Below are positions 15,190 to 30,690 of a stretch of DNA of 64,000 bases, piece after piece. The notes under the pieces were generated by a model, which saw nothing but the letters and a program-made list of their open reading frames with translations, did no database searches and was not told the origin of the DNA. This DNA comes from a virus (Duplodnaviria > Caudoviricetes): IMG/VR virus record IMGVR_UViG_3300021387_001758, positions 1 through 64,000 of that record; one strand, 5' to 3'. The first letter of the stretch is position 1. Every line of letters starts with the position of its first letter. Both the position numbers and the translations under genes were made by a program.

Positions 15190-15452
15190 TAATCTTTTCC
15201 TCTATCCTTATTAGCTTTTTTCATAATAAAAAGTAAGTTTCTTCTTTGGGCCTTTGACATTTTCGGAACTTTTTCAAAAAGCTCGTCAAAAAGTTCTTCT
15301 GCGCTTTTCGTAATCGTTCTTTCTTCATCTTTAAAAAGCTTGATTCCGCAAACCGTCAATAAACCCAAATATTCTTGGACTGGTAATTGTATAAGCTCTC
15401 TTGCGAACTTATCCATATACTTATTAAGCTTTCGCTCATTTTTATCTACCAT
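15189..15452 (-). CDS. Hypothetical protein
   Basis: 87 aa, coupled to neighbours. Confidence 0.5.
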   Translation of the reverse strand: MVDKNERKLNKYMDKFARELIQLPVQEYLGLLTVCGIKLFKDEERTITKSAEELFDELFEKVPKMSKAQRRNLLFIMKKANKDRGKD

Positions 15453-16849
15453 TATTTTTTCTTCTCCTTCTCTTTTTTCTTAGCATCGCGCCGTTCCTTT
15501 TCGCATCTCTTACATTTCGAGTTAAAACCTGTTGCAGATTTACTTTTCTTCACGAAATTCCTACTATGGAGAAGTAGGGTTCTCCCACAAAAATTACATT
15601 TTCTGAAGTTTTCCGGAAAGAACAAATTTCCAATAACCTCAAAATGGTATTCTGCGGCTTCATTAATTTTTTTAATAACCTTTTGCTTAAAGATAGTACT
15701 AATATAGTTTGTTGTATAATTCTTCCCATACTTTTGATTAATGAACTTTGCTATGTCCTGATTTCGCTCCCCTTGGATTTTTAGGCGCAAAATATCTTGT
15801 TGGGCGTCGCTAAGCTCCGCAAACTCCATGTAAAAGTAAAGCGTATCAAGTAAAGCCCCACTATTAGTTTCAAAGTTGAAGTCGGCTTCTGCTCTGGCCG
15901 CAGACTCTTCCAATTCCTGTATCATGGAAATGATCTGGTAAACGTCTTCTTGGCGGCGGAAATCAAGGAAGTTGGGGGTTTGGTTTAGTTCGGAAATTTT
16001 CTGCCAGTAAAATTGGGAAATGTAAGAAAGTTCAGAAGATGTATACTGCGCGGGGTCGAAGTCCAATCGAAAAATAAGCTGGGAGTAGTCTGAGTTAATG
16101 TTGAAAAGACCCAGCGGCGCAACTAAAACGTCACAATCCCAACTTATAGAGTCGTTTGCGGGCGGGCGCAACTCGTAGGAGGAAGGAAGTAGAGTCGGCG
16201 CATAGGAGTCCTTATACGTAAATTGCTGTTTACGAAGTTCGACTAATTCGTGACGTTTTTTAAGGTAGGAGTAGGGGTTGAGGTGGAGGGAACGCTCTTC
16301 GAGGGTTTTTTGTTCCTCTTCTGTAAATCGGTTCAAAAGCTCGTCGCGCGGTGGGGTTTTGCGTTTTCCGCTTCGTAAATCGTAGTAGTTTAGGGTAAGT
16401 TCGAGTTGGTCTATCGACCTCCATAACTCTTCTAAAATCGCTAAAATCTCTGGTGGAGCCGACTTACGAGCTGCCGCACGACTAAATGTAGCTTTGGGTT
16501 GGGTATAGTGGACCGGATCGTTCGTTAGGGTTGCTTCGTTGAAGGTGGGAGCTTCAATAAGGGCGTCAAGCGATTCAGTTTTTTCCTTTGTATCCCAAGT
16601 CCCATGACTCGTCTTAATCTCTATGCCGGCTTTAGCTGCTACGGTTTCTTTTTTGTTAAAGGTTTTTTGGGTTAGGGGTTCCTCGTTTTGGCTTGCGTTT
16701 AAGGCGCGGCCCCATAGAATGTAGTTACCCATTGTTTCGAGTTCGTCGGATGTTGGGTTGAAGTCAATACGTTGAAGATAGTCTTCGAGGAATTTTTTGC
16801 GTTCCTCGGCATCTATAATTGTAAAATCTAGGTGTAATCGGTTTGCCAT
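15452..16849 (-). CDS. HTH (sigma70 region-4/LuxR-like) plus C-terminal Zn-finger protein; possible late transcription regulator
   Basis: LSDAQQDILRLKIQGERNQDIAKFINQKYGKNYTTNYISTIF HTH-like; CNFC...CKRC; first gene of the structural operon. Confidence 0.55.
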   Translation of the reverse strand: MANRLHLDFTIIDAEERKKFLEDYLQRIDFNPTSDELETMGNYILWGRALNASQNEEPLTQKTFNKKETVAAKAGIEIKTSHGTWDTKEKTESLDALIEAPTFNEATLTNDPVHYTQPKATFSRAAARKSAPPEILAILEELWRSIDQLELTLNYYDLRSGKRKTPPRDELLNRFTEEEQKTLEERSLHLNPYSYLKKRHELVELRKQQFTYKDSYAPTLLPSSYELRPPANDSISWDCDVLVAPLGLFNINSDYSQLIFRLDFDPAQYTSSELSYISQFYWQKISELNQTPNFLDFRRQEDVYQIISMIQELEESAARAEADFNFETNSGALLDTLYFYMEFAELSDAQQDILRLKIQGERNQDIAKFINQKYGKNYTTNYISTIFKQKVIKKINEAAEYHFEVIGNLFFPENFRKCNFCGRTLLLHSRNFVKKSKSATGFNSKCKRCEKERRDAKKKEKEKKK

Positions 16850-16959: not shown

Positions 16960-17674
16960 ATTTTAGAAGGCATAGGTTGAAAAAAATATCTTGTGGGGAT
17001 AATAGGTTCAGATTTTTGTTTCGTGGAGATAATGTAGGGGCCGTTTTTCTCTAACGCTTTCCAAAACCTTCCTTTTCCTAAAATAACCCCGGCCCTTCGA
17101 GCGATTGACTTTGTTAAATTTTTAACAACCTCTTCATCAATTCTCACTCAATTTTTCCGCAAGTTACTGTCGCCCAAAAGAACATATGTTCTTTTTTCTA
17201 TTGTCAAAAAATTTTTAGAATTTCGAAAGAATTCCTAAAAGGGGCCGGTCATTTTTTATTCACCCCTCTTCAATAAAAACCACCCCTCTTTTAGTCGAAC
17301 AAAGGAGATCCTATTCTGCGGGCCAGGGTCGCGAAAAAGAACATATGTTCTTTTATTTAGTCCGGACTTTGTTAAATTTTTAACAAAGTCGTAGTCCGGA
17401 CTTTGTTAAATTTTTAACAGGTGATCGTCTTATCTTTGGGACGTTTTAGTCCGGCCTTTGTTAAAAATTTAACAAAGTCCCGCGCGAGTTGGGGGGCCAA
17501 ACACTTTAGCGCATTAAAGTAGTAAAGCGAACCTCTTCATTTTGTATTGTGTATACAGTATACAAGGACAAAAAAATAAATTAAAAAGATAATAAAAAAA
17601 TAATAAAAAGGGGTTGACAAGTTATAGTATCCATGCTATTATATATATGTAAGAAAGAGAGAGGAGAAAAGGAA

Positions 17675-18085
17675 ATGACAAAGGCTTACTACTTCGATAT
17701 GGACGGCGTGCTCGCAAACTTCCATAAGGCATATAAAGAGGATAGAATGGTTGCTCTTAAGAGAGATAAGATGGCGAACCTTGAACCGTTCGAAGCAAAC
17801 GTGAAACTCGTTCGCAACCTTATCGCACATAACGAAGTAGTATATGTACTCACTAAGGCAGCCAACGAAGAGGCGATGGAAGGCAAGATTGAATGGCTTG
17901 CAAAGTACGTTCCTGAGATGGATAAAGAACACTTCATTTGCATCGTAGGTCATGGTAAGAAAGTTGACTTCATTCGTGAAGATGGCGTACTCGTTGATGA
18001 TGATATGAAGAACCTTAAGCCGTGGGCAAAGGAAGGACACGAAGTATACTACGTAGAAGAAAAGGGAATGGAAGTAGTATTCTAA
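17675..18085 (+). CDS. HAD-superfamily 5'(3')-nucleotidase-like protein, paralog 1
   Basis: DMDGVLANF motif I, LVDDD motif IV; own promoter at 17614-17642; start at 17675 by RBS. Confidence 0.75.
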   Translation: MTKAYYFDMDGVLANFHKAYKEDRMVALKRDKMANLEPFEANVKLVRNLIAHNEVVYVLTKAANEEAMEGKIEWLAKYVPEMDKEHFICIVGHGKKVDFIREDGVLVDDDMKNLKPWAKEGHEVYYVEEKGMEVVF

Positions 18086-18260
18086 AGATAGAAAGAGGGT
18101 AGATAAAAGGTTTACCCTCTTCATTTATAGATAGAAAATAGATAGATAAATAGACAGTGAAAAAAGTTTAACTAATTTGTAAAAAGGGGTTGACAGTACC
18201 TCTTCATTGTGGTATATTATAGTTAAGGAAAGGGAAGATAATTGAAAGGAAGGTAAACAA

Positions 18261-18437
18261 ATGAGGAATATAAACACTGAAAACATTATTATAGCAATTA
18301 CAATAATTGCGGCAATTATCGGAACAATCATTGGTATTATTGCAATCGTAAACGGACAGATAGTAGACAGTGAAACAGTTAGCCCCGCCAACCCAGCAAG
18401 TCCCGTTCATCAGTTAATGAAGAGTGTAATGTATTAA
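18261..18437 (+). CDS. Small single-pass membrane protein (58 aa)
   Basis: Hand-translated MRNINTENIIIAITIIAAIIGTIIGIIAIVNG...; promoter, RBS and terminator (18437-18458). Confidence 0.6.
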   Translation: MRNINTENIIIAITIIAAIIGTIIGIIAIVNGQIVDSETVSPANPASPVHQLMKSVMY

Positions 18438-18695
18438 AGAAGTCGAAAGACTTCTTTTCATTTACCAAGGGACGAACATACGTTCGCACCAAGCGAACAT
18501 ATGTTCGTCTACTGCGGGCGGCCGCGCGCACTTTAGCACGTTAAAGCATTAAAGCATTAGTATCGAGTTTGTTTGTTAATTAACAAACGACATATTTATA
18601 CATTGAAATGAATATTTATTTTTTTAATTTGAGGGTTGACAAATATATTCAGTTGTGGTATATTATAATTGACGAAAGGAAAGGAGAAAACACAA

Positions 18696-19439
18696 ATGAC
18701 AAAACTAATATTCGATACTGAGACTACTGGACTGGATAAGCCGTTCTGTTACAATGTGGGCTATATCATTGTTAATGATGAGGGTATGGTAGAGGTAAAG
18801 AAAGAGTATGTATGCGAGCAGGTATGGCATAATCCAATGCTATTTACTACTGCATACTATGCGAACAAAAGACCAATCTATGTTAACAGAATGAGAGCAA
18901 GACAGATAACAATGAAGAAATTCGGTTATATCTGTCAAGAGATGATTAGAGATATTGAGCGCTATAATGTTACAATGGCTTTTGCTTTCAATAGCGACTT
19001 TGACGAGAAAGTGTTCGACTTCAATTGTGAATGGTTCAAATGTAATAATCCTTTTGATAATGTGGAAATTAAGGATATTAGAGGTTTCGTTCATCACTTC
19101 TTAATTGATAACGAGTTTAAAGCATTTTGCGAAGAACACGAACTGTTTACAGAATGTGGTAACTATTCCACCACAGCCGAAACAATGTATAGATATATAA
19201 CTGATGATAATACTTTTGAGGAAGAGCACACGGCGTTAAGTGATAGCATTATTGAGTGGGAAGTATTGAAGAAATGTATTGAAAGGGGCGCTGATACTAC
19301 AGAGAATTATAAAGCGTATCGCTCAATTAAAAGAGATACCGAAAAGGTATTAACAATTGATAATAAAGGCGATATATATACAATTCCTTGTAAAGAGTAT
19401 AAAGTTTATAAAAGCAAAAATAAAATTGTAATTAAATAA
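18696..19439 (+). CDS. DEDDh 3'-5' exonuclease (DnaQ-like), paralog 1
   Basis: IFDTETTG, AFNSDFD, HTALSDS motifs. Confidence 0.85.
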   Translation: MTKLIFDTETTGLDKPFCYNVGYIIVNDEGMVEVKKEYVCEQVWHNPMLFTTAYYANKRPIYVNRMRARQITMKKFGYICQEMIRDIERYNVTMAFAFNSDFDEKVFDFNCEWFKCNNPFDNVEIKDIRGFVHHFLIDNEFKAFCEEHELFTECGNYSTTAETMYRYITDDNTFEEEHTALSDSIIEWEVLKKCIERGADTTENYKAYRSIKRDTEKVLTIDNKGDIYTIPCKEYKVYKSKNKIVIK

Positions 19440-19535
19440 AAAAGTTTTGAAAAAGGGGTTGACAAACCCCTTTTTCCATGTTATTATATGTATGTAAGAA
19501 AGAGAGAGAGTTAAAAAAAGAAAGGAAGTAAAAAA

Positions 19536-19736
19536 ATGAAGTTCTTTAAGATGATGAAGGCGGCGGTAATGATTGGTAAAATGTTCAGCGATGAGGAAAA
19601 AATCAAAGAGTTAATCGACGAATACTTTGCCGAAACCGGATTAACAGTCACTGTTGAAGAGGTAAAGGCAAACGATTCAGAAAAAGTCGACTGGTTTGCG
19701 GAATGGGTTTCTGATAAGGTTATCGCACAACTTTAA
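19536..19736 (+). CDS. Hypothetical protein
   Basis: 66 aa with own promoter and RBS. Confidence 0.6.
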   Translation: MKFFKMMKAAVMIGKMFSDEEKIKELIDEYFAETGLTVTVEEVKANDSEKVDWFAEWVSDKVIAQL

Positions 19737-19839
19737 AAAATAAAATAAAAAAATAAGCGAAAGGGGTTGACAAAACCCCTTTTGTATTGTATTATAATTA
19801 TAGAAAGAGAGAGGAAGAAAAGAAAGAGAGGTAAATAAA

Positions 19840-19998
19840 ATGACAAGAAAGATGGTAGAAGAAAGAATGAAATTCGTTGAAGAAAGACTTTTCTATATCG
19901 CGATGGTAGATATGCCGACCGCAAGAGATAAAGAACTTGAAAGAGAATTTGAACACGAACTCAAAGGACTTAAAGAACAGATGAAGGCGTTCGGTTGA
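19840..19998 (+). CDS. Hypothetical protein (52 aa)
   Basis: Hand-translated MTRKMVEERMKFVEERLFY...; promoter and RBS. Confidence 0.55.
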   Translation: MTRKMVEERMKFVEERLFYIAMVDMPTARDKELEREFEHELKGLKEQMKAFG

Positions 19999-20228
19999 CG
20001 GACGCTTTTTTATGTCAACCAAAAGAACATATGTTCGTCCTGGCGCGGGCGCGTCCACTTTAGCACACTAAAGCGTTAAAGTGTAGATCTTTCGGGCGCG
20101 CTTGTTAAAAATTTAACAAAGTTCCTCTTCAAAAAATTTTAAATTTTTTAAAATAAATACTTGACAAATAAATATATTTTATATATAATATATATAGAAA
20201 GAGAAAGGTAAAAGAAAGGAAAATAAAA

Positions 20229-20672
20229 ATGACTAAAGCAATTTACTTCGATATGGATGGAACAATCGCTAACCTTTACGGAGTTGAAAATTGGTTAGAT
20301 ATGCTTATCAATGGAGACGAAACACCATACAGAGTGGCGAAACCGATGATAAAAATGAATGTACTTGCAAGGTACTTAAACAAGTTACAGAGACATGGTT
20401 ATATAATCGGAATTGTTAGTTGGTTGTCTAAAGGTGGAAACACAGAATATAATAAAAAAGTAACAGAAACAAAAATCAAATGGTTGCATACTCACTTGAA
20501 AAGTGTTGAATGGAACGAAATAAAAATCGTTGAATACGGAACACCTAAAGAAACGATTGTAAACTATCCAAAAGGTATTCTGTTCGATGATGAAAAACAG
20601 AATAGAAAAAATTGGAAAGGTAAAGCATATAAAGAAAATCAGATTATGGAAGTGTTGAAAGCGATTGCATAA
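20229..20672 (+). CDS. HAD-superfamily nucleotidase-like protein, paralog 2
   Basis: FDMDGTIANL, LFDDE motifs. Confidence 0.75.
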   Translation: MTKAIYFDMDGTIANLYGVENWLDMLINGDETPYRVAKPMIKMNVLARYLNKLQRHGYIIGIVSWLSKGGNTEYNKKVTETKIKWLHTHLKSVEWNEIKIVEYGTPKETIVNYPKGILFDDEKQNRKNWKGKAYKENQIMEVLKAIA

Positions 20673-20757
20673 AATCGCTTTCAACCTTAAAAAAGGTATT
20701 GACAAGTTAAAAATTATATGCTATAATAAAAGCAGATAAAGGAAAGGGGAAAAGAAA

Positions 20758-21051
20758 ATGACACAGAGTATTATGCAGTTGGCGGAATTATTAGACGAGT
20801 GGAATATTCCTTATGAATTAACTGACGATGTATGCGGAAACGAAAATAATCAGTTATGGTATCCTAACTATAAACATAATATTTGTGATGTAATTTGTCA
20901 CGAATACAGTTACGGCGGAAAAGATGGCTTACTTGAAATAATGGGTTTAGTCCCTGAAGAGGTCGGCGATGATGTAGAAGGGTATTTAACAGTTGCGGAA
21001 GTATTCCACAGAATTCTGCAGGACTATTGCGAAAATAAAGTAAAAAATTAA
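20758..21051 (+). CDS. Hypothetical protein
   Basis: 97 aa; promoter and RBS. Confidence 0.65.
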   Translation: MTQSIMQLAELLDEWNIPYELTDDVCGNENNQLWYPNYKHNICDVICHEYSYGGKDGLLEIMGLVPEEVGDDVEGYLTVAEVFHRILQDYCENKVKN

Positions 21052-21142
21052 AAAGTTTTTTTCTAAAAAGGGTTGACAAACCCTTTTTTTCATGTTATAT
21101 TATATATGTAAGAAAGAGAGAGATAAAAGAAAGGAAAAGAAA

Positions 21143-21316
21143 ATGGCTTACGTAGAAATGTTCGATTATGTGCTTTCTGTAGAACAGTATGAACGCGAAC
21201 GCGCGCAGTACCACGAAGAATGGTTAGCGATGGATGATTGGGACCGTTCATGGTATGATGATGAAGAGGAATTCATCGAAGACCGTTTCCATTCCGCTTG
21301 CTATCCGGATGACTAA
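21143..21316 (+). CDS. Small acidic protein (57 aa)
   Basis: Start re-placed by RBS; terminator at ~21327-21352. Confidence 0.6.
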   Translation: MAYVEMFDYVLSVEQYERERAQYHEEWLAMDDWDRSWYDDEEEFIEDRFHSACYPDD

Positions 21317-21614
21317 AGAAAAGAAAAGTAAGCCGCAAGGCTTATTTTTTTCTATCCATCAAAAGAACATATGTTCGGGCGCGGCCGGCCGCACTTTAGC
21401 GCATTAAAGTAATAAAGTGCGCGACTTTCGCCGTCGATTGTTAAATTTTTAACAATTGATCCTATATATATATTATAATTCTCTTCCCATTATATCATAC
21501 CATACAAGAGAGATAATGTCAAGGGAAAAATTAAAAAAAATTTGTTAAATTTTCCCTTGACAGATTAAAAAACTCATGCTATAATAAAGACACAAAAGGA
21601 AAGGAGAGTAAAAA

Positions 21615-21851
21615 ATGAAAGCATTTGTTACGAAAGCAAACTCGGATTATTGGTACAAAATTAAAGAATTTGACACGATGGAAGATATTGCAAAATTTAT
21701 GAAAGAGGTTGAGTGCGGATTAATTATTGAAGAAAATGATTATACTGACGATGTACTTTTTGAATTTTGGGACGGAATGAAACAGGAAGACATTCCGATT
21801 ATTAAAGAATGTGCTTTACATATCACTATTTACAATGATTATGTAGAATAA
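21615..21851 (+). CDS. Hypothetical protein
   Basis: 78 aa; promoter, RBS, terminator at ~21872-21900. Confidence 0.65.
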   Translation: MKAFVTKANSDYWYKIKEFDTMEDIAKFMKEVECGLIIEENDYTDDVLFEFWDGMKQEDIPIIKECALHITIYNDYVE

Positions 21852-22065
21852 AAATTCTGATAAAGAGAAAAGAGTTAGTCTTTACTAACTCTTTTCTTTT
21901 GCGCGTCCCTCTTCAAAAAAAAACTTGACAAAATAAAAAAAATATGATATAATATATATAGAAAATAAAAAAGAAAAGAAAATTTGAAAAAAAATTAGAA
22001 AAAGGGTTGACAAACAAAATTTGAGTGGTATAATAATAGTAGAAAAAGAGAAAGGAGAAAAGAAA

Positions 22066-22422
22066 ATGGCTGTTAGTAGAAAAGTAGAAAGAGAACTTTT
22101 GAGAGAAGAGTATTTGAACAAACTGATTGAGTACTTTAAAGCCGATGAAGATGTTTTGAGAGTGAAAAGTAACGAAATCGCATTTCCTGTAGTTGGTTGT
22201 AACGATAGTGAGGATTTTATCGTAATTACAGTAAAAGTGCCTACGGGTGCAAACAAAGGTACAGAGCCTTACGATGGTTACGAACTTGCCGAAGAATACG
22301 AAATGAAGTTGAAAGAGAAAGAACAGAAAAAGAAAGAAAAGGCAATCGCAAAAGAAAAGAAAATCAAGCGTGACGAAGAAGTCAGACGCAAGAAAAAGGA
22401 AATCGCCGAAAAAGGAAAATAA
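22066..22422 (+). CDS. Hypothetical coiled-coil protein, MAVSRKVERE family paralog 1
   Basis: Close paralog of 27748..28107. Confidence 0.75.
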   Translation: MAVSRKVERELLREEYLNKLIEYFKADEDVLRVKSNEIAFPVVGCNDSEDFIVITVKVPTGANKGTEPYDGYELAEEYEMKLKEKEQKKKEKAIAKEKKIKRDEEVRRKKKEIAEKGK

Positions 22423-22510
22423 AAAAAATAAAAAATAAAAGAGAAAAGGGGTTGACAAAATCCCTTTTTTCATATATAATATAATTGTAAAGAGAAAGGG
22501 GAAAGAAAAA

Positions 22511-22693
22511 ATGAAAAAGAAATACAGACTGAATAAAGTAAAATTTATCCGTTTTATCTGCTTTACAATTATGCTTTTAATCATCGGTTGGTTCATGGTT
22601 TCATACATTGAAATTCTTTGTAAGAATATCACAGAAAATCCGACTTACAGCGACTGGAATTTTATCTTTGTTGCACAAAAACTTTTGAAATAA
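22511..22693 (+). CDS. Small membrane protein
   Basis: 60 aa with one hydrophobic segment. Confidence 0.6.
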   Translation: MKKKYRLNKVKFIRFICFTIMLLIIGWFMVSYIEILCKNITENPTYSDWNFIFVAQKLLK

Positions 22694-22914
22694 TCACCTT
22701 TTACCTCCTTTTTTACAATATATGGAAAAGGTCACCACTGAGTGGTGACTTTTTCCGCTCTTCAAAAAGAACATATGTTCGCCTCCGGCGCCGGACCGGA
22801 GATTGTTAAAAAATTAACAATTTCGGCACCGCGCACTTTAACGCTTTAACGTGGTAAAGTGTACGCAGACGGGCGCGCCCGCTTTAGCGCGCTAAAGTGG
22901 TAAAGGATTGTACT

Positions 22915-23470
22915 AAATAAAAAACATTAAAAAAGGTATTGACATTTAGGGCGGGCGGGTGTATACTATAATTGTTCCAAGGGAGGGACAAACGAAAATA
23001 AAAAAAATAAAAAAAGTTTGAAAAATCCCTTGACAAATCAAAGCCAATGTGCTAATATATACTTGAGGGTAGGAGAGTTAAGGGTTTACCTCACTACAAA
23101 GTAGCAAGCAGTCGCAAGTACAAGCACTACCGAAAAAACCCGAAAAAAGTTTAAAAAAAGTGTTGACAAACTAAAGCAAATGTGCTAATATATAATCAAG
23201 GAAAGGGAGATACTTCTGAGACTGTTCCCCAATACCGAAAGGCAAGAGAACTGTGAGCCAAATAAAATTTGTAGCCGCATAGGAAGTATCACCCGAAATC
23301 CTAAAAAAATCTAAAAAAGGTATTGACAAACTTGAAAAAGTATGTTAATATATAAATGTCAAGAGGGTCGTGGAGAGGTCGCCCCACGAAGTAGCGTAAG
23401 AGGATAACACACAGACCTAAATCGATAAGTGAAAACCTCTTGACAATATTACAAAAGTGTGATAATATAT
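22915..23470 (+). promoter_or_regulatory. Stack of five tandem sigmaA promoters with ORF-less intervals
   Basis: TTGACA near 22940, 23031, 23164, 23323, 23440, each with a -10-like hexamer. Confidence 0.75.
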
Positions 23471-23546
23471 AATCACAGAGAGGGAGACAGGAACTCCCAA
23501 AGGTAACTAAAAAGGGTCACGACCAACGTGAGAAAGTAGGTACACT

Positions 23547-23888
23547 ATGACTAACAGAGAATTCTTCGAAATGGTAATGAATGGTAACGTAACTGACGAG
23601 GTTAAGGCTCACGCTGAAATGTCGATTGAGAAACTCGATGCGCGCAACGCAAAGAGAGCATCTCAGCCGTCAAAGAGAGCGATTGAGAACGAACCTATCA
23701 AGGCTAACATCAGAGAGTATCTCGCTGATAAAGAGCCGACTACGGCAAGCGAAATTGCCAAGGGACTTGAACTGACTGTTCAGAAAGTTTCCGCACTGTG
23801 TAGACAGATGGTAAATGATGGTATTCTCACCGTTACCGAGGTTAAGGTAAAGGGAAAGGGCAATCAGAAAGCGTATGCTATCGGTTGA
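23547..23888 (+). CDS. Winged-HTH (MarR/ArsR-like) protein, paralog 1
   Basis: TTASEIAKGLELTVQKVSALCRQMVNDGIL. Confidence 0.75.
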   Translation: MTNREFFEMVMNGNVTDEVKAHAEMSIEKLDARNAKRASQPSKRAIENEPIKANIREYLADKEPTTASEIAKGLELTVQKVSALCRQMVNDGILTVTEVKVKGKGNQKAYAIG

Positions 23889-24181
23889 CAATAATTCCCA
23901 GCCGGGAAGAGAGAGAAAATCTCTCTCTTCCTTTTTTTACCATTCCGCGGTTAACAATAACAGGTATTATGTCAACCGCGACAATAATAATATTATTGTC
24001 AACCGGCCAAAAATCTTTATCCACAGATTGTTAAATTTTTAACAGGGCGGCCGGCCGCGCGCACTTTAGCGAGTTAAAGCGTTAAAGGATCGAGCCAAAA
24101 AAATAATTGGAAAAAAGTACTTGACAAGTCCTCTTCATTATGGTAATATATACTTGTAAGAAGGAGAAAGGAGAAATAAAA

Positions 24182-24373
24182 ATGACTTGTACTGAATGGA
24201 ATAAAGGGATTAAGTTCCTCACTACTGCAGAGGTAGGCGCGTGGGTTGACCACGAAGACCGCACAGTTATTATCGAGGAGATGTGCGGAGGCAGATATTT
24301 ACTCCTCGACCGCAAAGAAGTTTGCGGGGTGACCGATTCGGTCATCGAGGCGATGTCATTCCTTAGGGGATAG
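24182..24373 (+). CDS. Hypothetical protein
   Basis: 63 aa; start by RBS. Confidence 0.6.
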   Translation: MTCTEWNKGIKFLTTAEVGAWVDHEDRTVIIEEMCGGRYLLLDRKEVCGVTDSVIEAMSFLRG

Positions 24374-24527
24374 GCAACCGCCTTTTTTATTAACCAATGA
24401 ACGAACGTTCGCGCGGCCGGCCGCGCGCACTTTAGTCTGCTAAAGCATTAAAGGATCGAAAAAAAGTACTTGACAAATCCTCTTCATTATGGTAATATAT
24501 GGGTAGAAAGAGAAAAGGAGATAAAAA

Positions 24528-24701
24528 ATGAAAGTGATTTTTGCAGGGTATCTTATTGTAGTCTTTTCCCTTGGCGTTCATGGGATTTTTTATGATAAAA
24601 CCGATAAAAACGGAAATTTTAAAGTAAATTGGCCTTTTGGTTTATTTCTTTTCTTGTTTGGACTTACTCCCATAATTGCGAAAATATGTAATTTAATTTG
24701 A
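24528..24701 (+). CDS. Small two-TM membrane protein (57 aa)
   Basis: Hand-translated MKVIFAGYLIVVFSLGVHGIF...WPFGLFLFLFGLTPII. Confidence 0.55.
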   Translation: MKVIFAGYLIVVFSLGVHGIFYDKTDKNGNFKVNWPFGLFLFLFGLTPIIAKICNLI

Positions 24702-24770
24702 AATTGCACTTGACAAGTCCTCTTCATTGTGATATACTTATTATAGAAAGAAAGGAAAGGAGAAAGGAAA

Positions 24771-24938
24771 ATGAAAACGTACTTATTTGAAGATTTTGAA
24801 ACGGGTGAGAGATTCTTTGTTGAAGAGGAAACACCGGAAAAGGCAATTGCAGTTGCCGATGAATATTTTGACCACGCTATTTTCATGTGGGAAGTATCCG
24901 AAGAATGGGCGGACTTGGCAGGATTTGACACTTACTAA
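24771..24938 (+). CDS. Small acidic protein (55 aa)
   Basis: Hand-translated MKTYLFEDFETGERFFVEEE...; promoter and RBS. Confidence 0.6.
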   Translation: MKTYLFEDFETGERFFVEEETPEKAIAVADEYFDHAIFMWEVSEEWADLAGFDTY

Positions 24939-25042
24939 AAAAAATTAAAAAAGTTTTGAAAAAGGGTTGACAAGTTCAACCCTTTATGGTAATATATAAT
25001 CGTAAGGAAGAGAGAGTTAAAAAAAAGAGAAAGGAAAAAGAA

Positions 25043-25234
25043 ATGATGTACTTAGTAATTTTTATCGAAGAATACGTTGGCTACCACTTTGACGAACACA
25101 CCAAGTTTTTCAAGGATGAACAGTCGGCAAAGGAATATTGCCAGAAATTAAACGCCGAATTTGCCGAAGAAAATCATTGTTCGGTTGAAGATTTAGGTGA
25201 CTACTACACGGTTGAGTGGGTTAAGGAAGGTTAG
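25043..25234 (+). CDS. Small acidic protein
   Basis: Start by RBS; terminator at ~25250-25276. Confidence 0.6.
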   Translation: MMYLVIFIEEYVGYHFDEHTKFFKDEQSAKEYCQKLNAEFAEENHCSVEDLGDYYTVEWVKEG

Positions 25235-25586
25235 AAAGGACTAACCCACCAAAAAGAGGGCAACCTCTTTTTTTTTGTTCTGCCGGCGAACATACGTTCT
25301 CGGCGGCCGCCCTCGCGCACTTTAGCGTAGTAAAGTGGTAAAGTGGACGGATCCGGCGCCCGCGCATAAACATACATGAAAATGTATAAATATTTTTTTC
25401 AAAAAAGTATTGACAAAATTGATTATATATATTATACTATAATGGGGAAGTATGCCCAGGCGTAAAAGTGCGAATTTTCTGAATTGTCAGAAAATTAAAA
25501 CTTTTTATTTTGGGGTTGACAAATTCCGTTCTATCCCTTATAATAGTAACTGTAAGGTAAAGAGAAAAGGAAAGGAACGAAACAAC

Positions 25587-26252
25587 ATGAAAATCGACAA
25601 AAGAAAAAACTATTATCTGACAATCGACACGGAAACGGCAAACGGATTTGATGACCCGATTGTATACGATTTAGGCGGATGTATACATGACAAGAAAGGC
25701 AACGTAATGGAAACATTTTCCTTTATCATTTACGAAACCTTTTGCGGAATGAAAGATTTAATGCAGAGTGCCTACTACTCCGAAAAAATTCCGATGTATC
25801 AGAAAGAAATTGACGAGGGAAAAAGAAAAATCGTAACCTATACCACCGCCAAAAGATATATCAATGCACTTTGTAAAAAGTACAATGTCAAGGCAATAAT
25901 CGCCCACAATATGAGATTTGATTATAGGGCAACGACACGGACGCAAAGATATATCACGAAATCAAAAGTCAGATTTTTTCTTCCGTATGGCGTTGAATTG
26001 TGGGATACAATGAAAATGGCAAATGATACAATTTGCAAACAGAAAACATATATCAAGTGGTGTAAAGAAAACGGATATATGACAAAGAACGGACAAGTCA
26101 GAAAAACGGCGGAAATCCTTTACAAGTACATTTCAGGCAACTGGGATTTTGTGGAAAATCATACAGGACTTGAAGATGTGCTAATCGAAAAGGAAATCTT
26201 TTCCAAGTGTATGGCACAACATAAGCCGATGAGAAAATTATGTTTTGACTAA
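25587..26252 (+). CDS. DEDDh 3'-5' exonuclease, paralog 2
   Basis: IDTETANG, AHNMRFD, HTGLEDV. Confidence 0.85.
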   Translation: MKIDKRKNYYLTIDTETANGFDDPIVYDLGGCIHDKKGNVMETFSFIIYETFCGMKDLMQSAYYSEKIPMYQKEIDEGKRKIVTYTTAKRYINALCKKYNVKAIIAHNMRFDYRATTRTQRYITKSKVRFFLPYGVELWDTMKMANDTICKQKTYIKWCKENGYMTKNGQVRKTAEILYKYISGNWDFVENHTGLEDVLIEKEIFSKCMAQHKPMRKLCFD

Positions 26253-26335
26253 AAAAATTCTAAAAAAGGGGTTGACAAAGTCAGCCCCTTTTGGTATTAT
26301 AATTATAGAAAGAGAGAGAAAGAAAGGTAAGAAAA

Positions 26336-26488
26336 ATGTATATGGTATGGGTATTTGATGAAGATTTATATGATGATGTGTTGATTTTTGAAGGGTCATA
26401 TGAACAGTGCCAAGAGGTAGTAGCCGAAGGGCGCGCAATCGGTGAGGACCCGTATATCGTAGCCAGCGAGGACTACTACGAGGACTAA
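26336..26488 (+). CDS. Small acidic protein (50 aa)
   Basis: Hand-translated MYMVWVFDEDLYDD...; terminator at ~26499-26527. Confidence 0.55.
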   Translation: MYMVWVFDEDLYDDVLIFEGSYEQCQEVVAEGRAIGEDPYIVASEDYYED

Positions 26489-27029
26489 GCCGAAAAGGAT
26501 AAGCCGAAAGGCTTATCTTTTTTTTTGTTCTTAAAAAGAACATATGTTCGCGGCGGGCCGGTGGCGCGCACTTTAGTCTGCTAAAGCGTTAAAGCGATCC
26601 GCGCCGCTTGTTAAAAATTTAACAATCGATCCGGTCCGCCGATTGTTAAAAAATTAACAAAGATTTTTTTCAAAAAGGGGTTGACTTTTTCCCTATGTGG
26701 GTATATACTATAATTGTCAAGGGGAGAGGAAGCCGAGGGACTCACGAGGGCGCGCACTCCACGAGAGAAGGAAAAAAATTCTCGAAAAAAAATAAAAAAA
26801 CCCCTTGACACTATCACAAAAATGTGATAATATATAATTGACCCAAGGGGAGAGGTTAAAAACGAAAGTAGTAAAATATTACAACCCCGCGGGTGAAAAA
26901 AAGTTTTAAAAAGTACTTGACAAGATAGACAAAAGGTGCTATACTTAAGTCAAGGAAAGGGGAAAGACAGGAACTTTCCCAAAGGTAAATCTAAAAAGGG
27001 TTGTGACCAACACAAGAAAGAGGTGTCTT

Positions 27030-27374
27030 ATGACAAAGAGAGAATTCATGGAAATGGTTATCGCTGAGGTTACTAACGCAGAACTCAAGGCTTTTGCCCA
27101 GTCTGAAATCGAAAAGATGGACGCGCGCAACGCTAAGAGAGCCGAAACGCCTTCCAAGACGGCAATCGCTAACGAGCCTATCAAGGCACAGATTGTCGAA
27201 TTCCTGAAGGGTTGCGAGGAAAAGGTTACCGCTTCCGCTATCGCTTCCGAGGTTGAAATCTCAACGCAGAAGGCTTCCGCCCTTTGCAGACAGTTGGTAG
27301 CAGATGGTGTTCTGACCGTCGCAGATGTGAAGGTTAAGGGCAAGGGTACACAGAAGGGTTACGAAATCGCGTAG
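27030..27374 (+). CDS. Winged-HTH protein, paralog 2
   Basis: VTASAIASEVEISTQKASALCRQLVADGVL. Confidence 0.75.
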   Translation: MTKREFMEMVIAEVTNAELKAFAQSEIEKMDARNAKRAETPSKTAIANEPIKAQIVEFLKGCEEKVTASAIASEVEISTQKASALCRQLVADGVLTVADVKVKGKGTQKGYEIA

Positions 27375-27747
27375 CCTAACCCAAGCCGAGGAAGGGAAAA
27401 ATTTTCCCTTCCTTTTTTTACCATTCAGACGAACATATGTTCGTGGCAGAAATTGGAAGAACATATGTTCGCGAACATACGTTCGCGGTCGATCTGGTCC
27501 GGACTTTGTTAAAAATTTAACAATCGGGGCCGGCGCCGCGCACTTTAACACACTAAAGTGCTAAAGTCTTTCGATCCGGCGCGCGGTTTACATAATATTA
27601 TTATCGTTATGCGGTGCGGTTTACATAATATTATTATCGTTACGAAAAAATCCGAAAAAAATTTTTGAAAAAGGGTTGACAAATTGTGTTCTATCCCTTA
27701 TACTATATATAGAAAGTAAGAGTTGAGGTTAAGGAAAGGAGTTAACT

Positions 27748-28107
27748 ATGGCAGTATCGCGCAAGGTAGAAAGAGAAATCATCCGCAAACAGTATCTCGA
27801 AATGGTAGCCGAATTCCTCAAGGAAAAGGGTGAAGATGTTCTCCGTGTTAAGTCCAACGAAATCGCTTTTCCAGTCGTTGGATGTGAAGATAGCGAAGAT
27901 TTTCTCGTTATCACTTTCAAGGTGCCGACTGGCGCCAATAAGGGAATGGAACCGTATGACGGTTACGAAATGGCGGAAGAGTACGAAATGAAACTCAAAG
28001 CCAAAGAGGAAAAGGCGAAAGCCAACGCCGAAAAAAAGGCGAAGAAAATCGCTCGCGACAAAGAAATCAGAGCGAAAAAGGCAGAAATTGCCAACAAGGG
28101 AAAATAG
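27748..28107 (+). CDS. MAVSRKVERE family paralog 2
   Basis: Shares LRVKSNEIAFPVVGCxDSEDF and KVPTGANKG with 22066..22422. Confidence 0.75.
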   Translation: MAVSRKVEREIIRKQYLEMVAEFLKEKGEDVLRVKSNEIAFPVVGCEDSEDFLVITFKVPTGANKGMEPYDGYEMAEEYEMKLKAKEEKAKANAEKKAKKIARDKEIRAKKAEIANKGK

Positions 28108-28619
28108 CCATTTTCTTCCAGAGGGAAGAGGGTCGGTTGACCCTCTTCTTTTATTGTAAACCGCGCAACAATAATAATATTATGTCAACCACGAACATAT
28201 GTTCGCGGCAGCCGAATTTCAAAGGCGAACATATGTTCGCGGCCGGCCGTAGTTGTCCACTTTAACACACTAAAGCGATAAAGTGCGCGCCGGCGGGCGT
28301 CCACTTTAACACGTTAAAGTAGTGAAGTGCAGAAATCCGGGCCGCTCGTTAAATTTTTAACAAAGTCAAGTTTTCTGGCAACTATTCCGAAAATTAGTTT
28401 TTTAGGAATAGTTACAACCTCTTCACTATATATAGTATATTTCCCTCTTCAATACCACTATATATAGTATGTTTTGGTCGTGCCAACTATTCCGAAAAAA
28501 TGCTTTATCGGCATAGTTATACCGCCGAATTGTCAGAATATTCCAACTATTCAGAATTGTCAGAATATTCCAGCTTTTCGCTTTAGCGTACTAAAGCGTT
28601 AAAGCGTTGTCAAATTTTA

Positions 28620-28860
28620 AAATTTTTCCAGGAGCTGCGAAAGAGCTGCGATCGAAAATTTTTTTCACGGCCGTGGGGAGCTGCGATTTGACTTTTTTAT
28701 TTCGCATCCAGGAGCTGCAAAAAATTTGACTTTAAAAGTCAAATTTCTTTTATAAAATTCAAGGAGCTGCGCTTTGGAAATTTGACAAAAAAAGTCAAAT
28801 TTTTAAGGAGCTGCAACTTAGAGCTTTTGGGAATTTGACTTTAAAAGTCAAATTTTCAGC
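28620..28860. repeat. Cluster of GGAGCTGC direct repeats and TTTGAC-N7-GTCAAA palindromes
   Basis: GGAGCTGC at 28631, 28677, 28711, 28763, 28807; palindromes at 28722, 28778, 28832 (and ~29580). Confidence 0.8.
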
Positions 28861-29115
28861 GCGCACCCGCACGAACCTCTTCAAATTAAAATTTGAAAAA
28901 GCTCTAAAAATCTTTTATAATATATATAGAAAGTGAGGGAAGAAAAAAATAAAAAGCTCCTCCGCTGAAGAGGAAAGGGCAAAAGAAATTTTGACAAATC
29001 CTCAAAAATCTTATATAATATATATGTAAGATGAAGAGAGGGAAAAGTAACTTCCTTCTAAAGTAAAAACCATAACGTAACTGGGTGGTGACCTACACCA
29101 GAAAGAGAGTACAAA

Positions 29116-29457
29116 ATGACTAAGAGAGAAATGATGAACCTGATCGCTAACGGAACTATCAATGAAGAGGTTATGGCTTGGGCTGTCGGCCAGATCGAGA
29201 AGATGGATGCGGCTAACGAGAAGCGCAGAAACTCCGTTTCTAAGAAAGCGCTTGAGAACGCTCCGATCATCGACAGAATCGTGAACGAGATCCTCGGTGA
29301 GGAACCGATGACTGCTACTGATGTAGCTGGAGTTCTCGGAGTTTCTGTCCAGAAAGCATCTGCACTCCTGCGCACTGCCGTGAAGGAAGGTAGAGCTGCT
29401 GCCGAGGACGTGAAAGTTAAGGGCAAAGGCACTCAGAAGGGGTACACTCTCGCGTAG
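29116..29457 (+). CDS. Winged-HTH protein, paralog 3
   Basis: MTATDVAGVLGVSVQKASALLRTAVKEGRA. Confidence 0.75.
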   Translation: MTKREMMNLIANGTINEEVMAWAVGQIEKMDAANEKRRNSVSKKALENAPIIDRIVNEILGEEPMTATDVAGVLGVSVQKASALLRTAVKEGRAAAEDVKVKGKGTQKGYTLA

Positions 29458-29499
29458 TGCCGCGCGAGCTGTAGTAAACGGCTGAAGAGGGGAAATCAC

Positions 29500-30690
29500 C
29501 CCTCTTCTTTTTATTTTATACGTATACTTAGACGTATTAGAATACGTTTGAGTATTATTTTTTTAACTTTTAATAGGAAAATTTGACTTTTTAAGTCAAA
29601 TTATTAATAATTTTAAACTTTTTTAAAGAAAAAATTTGATTTTAGTCGATGTGTGCGGCACCCACCTATTTCTGACCATACCAACTTCTTTCATAATCCT
29701 CCAACTCCTTTCAAAACCCCTCAACTTCTTTCAAAAACACGCAACTTCTTTCATTTTCCCCTTCTGAACTACCCCCTTCTCCGAGATCTACTGCGCAGGA
29801 CCACCGCCCTCCCATGCCCCGTGGCAGTCTACCTCCCTATAACGTATTACTAAACTTCTACTTATACGTAAACTTATACGTAACAACCCGTTACCAGCTG
29901 GGTTATCCTTAGTCGTATACGTATACTTATACGTAGACTTATACGTTTTACCGTTACCCTTTTCCTACCTTTTTCGTTACCCTTTTCCTTATCCGTTTAC
30001 TTATCCTTTTTTGTTACCTTTTCCGGTACATTTCCCGTTATCCTTTTTCGTAAACCCTTTCCCGGTACCTTAAACATATACGTATACGTATACGTTTATC
30101 GTATTCGTTTTCGTAGAGGTAGAAAATAAAAAAGCTCCTTCCGCTAGAGGAAGAAGCTAAGTTAATCGTAGTAGTTGACCGTTACGGCTCCCTTGTTTTT
30201 CCCCACCGTTGGTGGTAAAACCTGCGGGAGCTTCACAACTAGTAGAAGGTTTTTAGATTTGAGGTACCTTAATATTATACGTTTATACGTATAAGTATAT
30301 GTATACGTATATTTATATTTTTTCCTTATACGTATAATAAGTGATTTTAGTTAAAAGAAGCTACAATTTTTTTCGTAAAACTGCGCGAGTCCGAAATTTT
30401 TCTGCAAAATTTTTTGGAAAATTTCTGCAAAATTTTTTGGAAAATTTTTTGGAAAATTTCTGACGCTGGAAATTTTTTGGAAAAAATTTTTTTGGAAAAT
30501 TTTTTGGAAAATTTTAAGCCAGGGAAATTTTTTGGAAAATTATTTTCCCAAAATTTTTCCCAAAATTATTGATATACGTAGACTGCGCGCTGTCAAAAAC
30601 CTACTGATTTTCCCAAAATTTTTTGGAGAATTTTTTGGAAAATTTTTGATTGCGCGCAGTCGAAATAAAAAAGGAAGCTACAAAGCTTCC
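29500..30690. repeat. Non-coding low-complexity repeat tract at the strand switch
   Basis: TATACGTA(TAC) repeats ~29860-30340, CCGTTA/CCTTTTT repeats ~29950-30070, GGAAAATTTTT repeats ~30400-30650. Confidence 0.8.

Follow-up and report, generated by a model that had tools for sequence, protein, structure and literature searches.

HisR, a TrpR-family, histidine-dependent repressor (YerC in B. subtilis), recognises in the Firmicutes a palindromic operator of 20 base pairs (bp) with the consensus cacTTTAnnnnnnTAAAgtg (cacTTTA-N6-TAAAgtg; Ashniev et al. 2022, PMC9413887). The same study reports the regulator to be widespread in Eubacteriales, counts 635 HisR-regulated operons in 387 genomes, lists his operons, hisXYZ*, yuiF and hisR as its targets and finds in vitro binding of R. 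gnavus HisR to such a site solely in the presence of L-histidine. Here we describe an array of what are very probably operators of this type in a bacteriophage. The window, by which we mean the whole stretch of 64,000 nucleotides (nt) that was analysed (positions 1 to 64,000 of IMG/VR record IMGVR_UViG_3300021387_001758, an uncultured phage of 78,387 bp that is ~66% complete by CheckV), carries 14 copies of the tripartite motif CTTTA-N6-TAAAG-N3-TAAAG. The original prediction, made from the letters of the window, could not match this motif to a known host operator; it does however fit the published HisR consensus (PMC9413887) and occurs at his-operon, histidine-transporter and hisR-like gene promoters of Clostridia.

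Sites for host regulators have been described in phages before, namely Spo0A boxes in phi29 and Nf, which in phi29 act on both transcription and replication (PMC2731898), and, in phages of Alphaproteobacteria, CtrA boxes (PMC9437464). As in the array described here, these are sites for host master regulators in lytic phages, placed near early promoters and genome ends and coupling infection to the state of the host. They differ in that they overlap promoters or origin complexes and have demonstrated effects, whereas the sites here would belong to an amino-acid repressor and lie in promoter-free gaps among the operators of other repressors. A further parallel is datA, a chromosomal and self-regulatory locus for the titration of DnaA, which the phage array may resemble in having clustered high-affinity sites that sequester a DNA-binding protein and do not regulate an adjacent gene, although the array is neither chromosomal nor self-regulatory. 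To our knowledge no phage-borne sponge for several repressors has been described; neither a phage-borne repressor sponge nor arrayed HisR operators in phages were found in the literature searched, and the HisR paper (PMC9413887) does not mention phages. The motif itself is known, and its arrayed, tandem-strengthened use in phages is new relative to the HisR literature searched.

The tripartite motif and the HisR operator

An exact pattern search for CTTTA-N6-TAAAG-N3-TAAAG returned 13 copies in the window, of which 12 are on the + strand and the remaining one, at 22836-22859, is on the - strand, while dinucleotide-preserving shuffles of the window gave no match in 100 out of 100 cases. A 14th copy at 28304-28327 has an exact two-unit palindrome followed by TGAAG, which is one base off. 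Together the copies span 17504-28604 and the rest of the record is without any. The original prediction had proposed 14 rigidly spaced copies, one of them fully reversed, and all of this is borne out, with its coordinates 2 off due to the inclusion of a conserved CA flank. It had also described the spacer bases as variable, which they are, but an alignment of the 14 copies shows that they are not random, N6 being mostly R-C-R-C-R-Y and N3 beginning Y-R. With CA directly 5' of the motif in 12 of the 14 copies, the window consensus is CA-CTTTA-(R-C-R-C-R-Y)-TAAAG-(Y-R-N)-TAAAG with rigid spacing, and its three parts are best read as contiguous 8-bp units of which the first is inverted, that is, CTTTANNN followed by NNNTAAAG and again NNNTAAAG.

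The first 20 bp of the phage motif fit the HisR consensus, with CTTTA-N6-TAAAG exact in 14/14 sites. A scan of the extended motif against 185,579 prokaryotic genomes, one per species, recovered at least 115 loci, mostly in Clostridia from animal guts, and at many of these the motif starts right after a TTGACA/TATAAT promoter, just past the -10. When the flanking genes of the 115 listed host loci were clustered, two families accounted for 77 (41 amino-acid ABC substrate-binding proteins and 36 HisZ), and genes for proteins of 97-98 amino acids, YerC/HisR-like by sequence with no family model run, adjoin the sites in L184, L194, L215 and L230. This host context of hisZ, amino-acid ABC transporter genes and hisR-like genes matches the regulon described for HisR, and together with the match to the consensus it leads us to read the first two units as a HisR operator. 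We therefore consider it very probable that the phage sites are operators of the HisR type. They share the 20-bp palindrome with the described operators (PMC9413887), and in genomes of Clostridia the motif stands before his operons, hisXYZ-type transporters and hisR-like genes, but the phage sites are not beside histidine genes and number 14 in 11 kilobases (kb) as against about 1-3 per bacterial genome.

Two interpretations had been offered for the motif before its match to HisR. A protein-binding site suited to cooperative binding appears to be the right one. The other, a recombinase-type core with an accessory arm, could draw on the inverted-repeat geometry and the one inverted copy, as could a structural hairpin or a repeat that arose by chance, but we give these three hardly any credence. 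The N6 core differs between copies, there is no rearrangement around the inverted copy, the genes either side of which both remain on the + strand, and no recombinase-type family hit was obtained among the early-region open reading frames examined. A hairpin or terminator would have stems of only 5 A/T pairs, which is too weak, chance did not reach even one match in the shuffles, and a motif of the same architecture stands at operator position in host genomes.

Several other identities were rejected or set aside. The spacing or half-sites of the motifs cre, CIRCE, parS, TnrA, CtsR, dif, RTP Ter sites and Chi do not fit. A promoter for the phage sigma-like protein encoded at 15452-16849 does not suit the geometry of the motif, which moreover serves as an operator in hosts. 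Contiguous 8-bp units would suit a ribbon-helix-helix operator (omega heptads, ParG tetramer boxes, MetJ metboxes), an idea that the exact HisR match makes unnecessary.

The third unit and its spread among phages

TrpR half-sites are reported to have an 8-bp spacing, with cooperative dimers bound in tandem (PMC9413887; PMC8745587). In the phage the third unit is placed exactly 8 bp beyond the second in 14/14 sites (13 with exact TAAAG and one with TGAAG), which is what a second, shifted HisR dimer would need, and the last three bases of N6 together with TA (C-R-Y-T-A) may resemble the partner half-site of such a dimer. This tandem 8-bp architecture predicts cooperative HisR binding as stacked dimers. 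The likeness to the TrpR tandem operators of E. coli lies in the offset of the extra half-site by exactly 8 bp and extends to phi29-like phages, which reach 3-8 units; the half-sites differ, TAAAG in the phage as against GNACT for TrpR, and for HisR the tandem mode of binding is one that we infer.

In order to compare the third unit with its counterpart in hosts, 19 strict two-unit sites were taken from 201 genomes of one order, chosen regardless of a third unit. An exact third unit is present at 1/19 of these host sites and at 13/14 of the phage sites (P about 3e-7), and the phage sites are in addition flanked by G+C-rich blocks. Among perfect palindromes in viral contigs it is found in 52/171, also above the 1/19 of the hosts (P = 0.03), a comparison made less certain by the large number of near-identical contigs that come from a single metagenome, as the 171 were not de-replicated. 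Host operators with 3-5 units exist but are uncommon, one example being L234 before a transporter gene. Each of the 201 sampled genomes has 0-2 copies of the strict 20-bp form, whereas the phage has 7 strict and 14 total HisR-type sites within 11 kb.

The three-unit form is present in at least 115 viral contigs and the perfect palindrome in at least 118. Large relatives of the phage carry 1, 1, 3, 6 and 7 copies, grouped in every case within the early region beside the block of sigma-like and terminase genes, with no matches to a reversed-pattern control in the same relatives. They have in common with the record a terminase (~72-81% identity) and sigma-like, HAD, exonuclease and winged helix-turn-helix (wHTH) genes, in an order that is shuffled from one relative to another. 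In phi29-like phages of 13 kb the motif lies in the inverted terminal repeats, where TAAAG recurs every 8 bp for 3-8 units, in arrays 40-130 nt from both ends and ~110 nt upstream of the first inward promoter. The motif is thus kept in large relatives and in phi29-like phages alike, a lack of positional conservation in related phages having been named beforehand as an outcome that would speak against the proposed binding site.

An amino-acid repressor operator, if correctly identified, is hence widespread in phages of gut and rumen Clostridia, both in the early regions of large phages and in phi29-like terminal repeats, and the phage form is usually stronger, being tandem, when compared with host genomes. 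Of the small phages, L011 encodes a Gp16 ATPase, a PolB of protein-primed type, a phi29 capsid protein and a connector. The 13-kb contigs L011, L036, L042, L044, L065 and L079 are of phi29 type, L011 being the one whose family hits were checked, and their inverted terminal repeats open, like those of phi29, with AAAGT and then a run of C. Some of the 13-kb contigs have remnants of a sequencing adapter (TCCGATCT) at their ends.

Placement of the sites and possible functions

The array coincides with an early region of one strand, which shares its untranscribed gaps between the HisR-type sites and two other classes of palindrome.

17100-28610, + strand: early region with the array, containing ~28 consensus sigma-A promoters, ~21 small genes and 11 untranscribed terminator-to-promoter gaps with operator clusters

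This is the only long + strand block, with promoters of the form TTGACA-17-TATAAT and strong Shine-Dalgarno sites. The palindrome GAACATATGTTC (GAAC-N4-GTTC), presumably of the Gram-positive LexA/Cheo-box type, has 15 copies between 17180 and 28238, in the early region only; most read (A/C)GAACATATGTTCG and they come in doublets, with one triplet at 27431-27484. Also confined to the early region are 12 copies of TGTTAA-N4-TTAACA (17112-27522), the extended form of which, TTGTTAA-N4-TTAACAA, is the published clostridial Rex consensus. The usual order within a gap is LexA box, G+C block, TAAAG motif, Rex box. The G+C blocks are built on GGCCGG/CGGCCG cores (for example 24045-24063 and 24411-24429) and occupy the 15-20 bp 5' of each motif copy, the 18 bp directly upstream having 81% G+C as against a genome background of 36%; like blocks stand 5' of the motif in the unrelated phage contigs L007, L073, L078 and L091 and not in host operators. 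A Rex-type box within 70 bp accompanies 24% of the sites in viral contigs as against 3% of the genome loci. Rex-type boxes and the TAAAG motif also form alternating arrays in unrelated viral contigs such as L029 and L204. The 14 sites are as follows.

17504-17527, + strand: site 1, three units, exact; 87 nt upstream of the -35 at 17614 and preceded by four Rex-type and two LexA-type boxes
18531-18554, + strand: site 2, three units, exact; LexA-type boxes at 18474 and 18495, next -35 at 18636; its gap contains the terminator 3' of the gene ending at 18437
20058-20081, + strand: site 3, three units, exact; LexA-type box at 20025, Rex-type box at 20103; upstream of the HAD-like gene 20229-20672
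21394-21417, + strand: site 4, three units, exact; LexA-type box at 21365, Rex-type box at 21439
22836-22859, - strand: site 5, three units, exact, the sole reversed copy; forms a divergent pair with site 6, 22 bp apart
22882-22905, + strand: site 6, three units, exact; ends 33 nt before the -35 at 22939
24064-24087, + strand: site 7, three units, exact; Rex-type box at 24029; ends 33 nt before the -35 at 24121
24430-24453, + strand: site 8, three units, exact; nearest of all to a promoter, ending 16 nt before the -35 at 24470
25320-25343, + strand: site 9, three units, exact; after the terminator 25251-25272 and a LexA-type box at 25288
26571-26594, + strand: site 10, three units, exact; after the terminator 26492-26523 and a LexA-type box at 26538, before two Rex-type boxes
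27543-27566, + strand: site 11, three units, exact; after the terminator 27388-27414, three LexA-type boxes and one Rex-type box
28260-28283, + strand: site 12, three units, exact; first of three in the promoter-less island 28157-28607
28304-28327, + strand: site 13, two-unit palindrome exact, degenerate third unit TGAAG; in the same island
28581-28604, + strand: site 14, three units, exact; at the end of the same island

No copy lies inside a transcription unit, and all 11 clusters begin after an intrinsic terminator and end before the next promoter. The sites end 16-140 nt short of the next -35 and leave every -35/-10 core free, and the 450-bp island at 28157-28607 holds three HisR-type sites and two LexA-type boxes without a promoter. 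We take this island to contain in addition an NrdR-like pair at 28424/28456 (32 bp apart), CodY-like repeats at 28531/28558 and a Fur-family-like palindrome at 28171. The operator sequence is HisR's but the placement is not the classical position of a repressor, as the sites lie in untranscribed gaps upstream of the -35 and do not abut the core promoter as many of the host sites do. Classical repression of the early genes is unlikely given the lack of overlap with promoter cores, the distances to the -35 and the presence of three sites in an island that has no promoter.

Docking or titration of the repressor is preferred because the sites are off the promoter cores and far outnumber the host's own. 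Our best explanation as a whole, which we put forward tentatively, is that each copy would be an operator for host HisR, a YerC-type member of the TrpR family that needs bound L-histidine in order to attach to DNA. Units one and two would supply the canonical 20-bp palindrome, and the third TAAAG would make room for a second HisR dimer in tandem with the first, so that binding would be cooperative and the site stronger. The 14 sites in untranscribed gaps would dock and titrate HisR-histidine, such that replicating phage DNA would lift the repression of histidine synthesis and uptake in the host, and they would form one channel of a multi-repressor operator sponge beside the LexA-type and clostridial Rex-type boxes. 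HisR binding, the stoichiometry of the tandem and the effect of titration are all steps that we infer, and titration as the purpose of the sites is a possibility that falls short of being probable. Every factor presumed to bind in the gaps is a repressor that is bound in a replete, undamaged cell. Functions that need binding only, namely titration or an architectural role in cis, would be the most economical.

A more ambitious version, in which the early region is a multiplexed sponge of consensus, tandem-strengthened operators for HisR, LexA and Rex and perhaps for factors of NrdR, Fur and CodY type, is in our view rather doubtful. If true, repressors would be stripped off the chromosome as phage DNA accumulates, and the histidine, SOS, redox and deoxynucleotide regulons would come on without any phage protein; the strategy would be common to phages of gut Clostridia from 13-kb phi29-like genomes to those of >100 kb.

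A number of observations weigh against titration by host HisR. Three hint at a function in cis, namely the near-constant position of the LexA-type box, usually 29-36 bp upstream of the HisR-type site, the recurrence in four relatives of a site upstream of the orthologue of the HAD-like gene (20229-20672), and the orientation of the third unit, which points along early transcription in 13/14 sites here and 27/33 across the group. It is hard to see why a phage should gain from derepression of histidine genes in particular, the HisR reading does not account for the G+C-rich blocks, and hisR is assumed in the host from lineage.

Such hints would suit a role as nutrient sensor, in which HisR-histidine acts in cis and tunes early transcription or replication to the histidine state of the host while LexA and Rex report DNA damage and redox. 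Strong early promoters do lie downstream of the sites, of which some are placed at -53 to -93, with the bias in orientation and the conserved site at the HAD-like gene just described, and the phi29-like arrays are situated between the genome end and the first promoter, next to replication origins; the Spo0A sites of phi29 (PMC2731898) and the CtrA sites of alphaproteobacterial phages (PMC9437464) are precedents. We nevertheless judge a cis sensor somewhat unlikely, as promoter cores are left free, the distance to the promoter varies over 16-140 nt with one island lacking a promoter altogether, copy number ranges from 1 to 14 among relatives, and the presumed factors repress in replete, healthy cells, so that the phage would be slowed under good conditions.

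The position of the clusters, always at unit boundaries just after terminators, also raises a structural role in cis, in which the operators would be docks that serve as barriers or insulators, boundaries of supercoil domains or part of the architecture of ends and origins, and for which any abundant, conserved host DNA-binding protein would do. Several unrelated operator types packed together with G+C-rich blocks would be consistent with this, as would a tandem extension that favours stable occupancy. In phi29 a p6 nucleoprotein complex is assembled near the genome ends, the position held by the motif in phi29-like phages. Intrinsic terminators are however already there, barriers that depend on histidine, NADH and LexA cleavage would be unreliable, and we regard the structural role as unlikely.

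Titration or sensing of HisR, if either holds, would give phages a protein-free way to rewire or read host metabolism. The HisR assignment itself provides an orphan repeat with a named candidate binder and a testable ligand, histidine, and the operator types (HisR, clostridial Rex and Gram-positive LexA) could be used as markers of host lineage for uncultured phages.

Candidate binders and neighbouring features

The original prediction named as candidate binders three wHTH paralogs encoded in or near the array.

23547-23888, + strand: wHTH paralog a, weak MarR_2/HTH_24 hits; homologues only in the large relatives L096, L087, L081, L091 and L013
27030-27374, + strand: wHTH paralog b, judged an unlikely binder
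29116-29457, + strand: wHTH paralog c, judged an unlikely binder; flanked by TTTGAC-N5-GTCAAA

The paralogs do not hold up in this role, since their homologues are found only in large relatives whereas the motif is also present in complete phi29-like phages and in bacterial chromosomes without them. The palindrome TTTGAC-N5-GTCAAA has 4 copies at 28630-29605, among which about six GGAGCTGC repeats are interspersed, and makes a likelier target for phage wHTH proteins than does the TAAAG motif.

A phage-encoded protein that copies the specificity of HisR and regulates early genes could be one of these paralogs, which are encoded inside the array, or a protein with a HisR-like helix-turn-helix (HTH) in the missing third of the genome; the record being ~66% complete, such a binder could lie there, which also tells against a host protein. 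The Trp_repressor family (PF01371) gave no hit in the record at this level of completeness and none in 9/10 other phage records, including six small ones of phi29 type (four of them CheckV-complete) and two near-complete large relatives; the four complete small phages and the two large relatives carry the motif. In the complete relative G010 (139.7 kb) a frame at L240:1174-1731 contains three HTH repeats and is broken by one in-frame TAG. The last of the three HTHs gives a 29-bit Trp_repressor hit, restricted to the HTH, and has 40-46% identity to the HTHs of host HisR proteins, a further point in favour of a phage binder. Decay into a pseudogene, or else recoding of TAG in that phage, may explain the break, and the frame has no homologue in the record. 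A TrpR-family binder encoded by the phage is disfavoured, as no gene of the family was found in the ~66% of the genome covered by the record and the G010 frame is HTH-only, broken by TAG and without counterpart in the record. Since wHTH homologues were not found in phi29-like phages either, and the motif is identical to host operators, we rate any phage-encoded binder as quite improbable. Host HisR would be the most economical binder, given that no phage gene of the TrpR family was detected and that wHTH homologues are confined to large relatives.

The record probably represents a phage of gut or rumen Clostridia, with a full genome estimated at >110 kb. It encodes a terminase, a phage sigma-factor-like gene (15452-16849), a tail protein and 21 transfer RNA genes. 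Against some 50,000 deposited phages, megablast returned nothing and the sole blastn match was one of 100 bp to Staphylococcus phages. The early genes include paralogous HAD-type nucleotidases, putative exonucleases, named from DEDD-like N-terminal motifs as a family search was without hit, and the three wHTH proteins. Three pairs of early genes are paralogous.

17675-18085 and 20229-20672: HAD-type nucleotidase
18696-19439 and 25587-26252: putative DEDD-type exonuclease (no family hit)
22066-22422 and 27748-28107: lysine-rich protein of no known function

The order of these pairs is shuffled among relatives, which suggests cassette-like turnover. Five consensus promoters at 22939-23540 are 90-160 nt apart with no credible open reading frames downstream and may drive short early RNAs; an Rfam scan of 16.8-30.6 kb found no match. 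Where the + strand early region meets the - strand genes, dense TATACGT-type repeats with a periodicity of 12 bp run in both orientations through 29500-30350, and this field is a candidate replication origin or iteron field.

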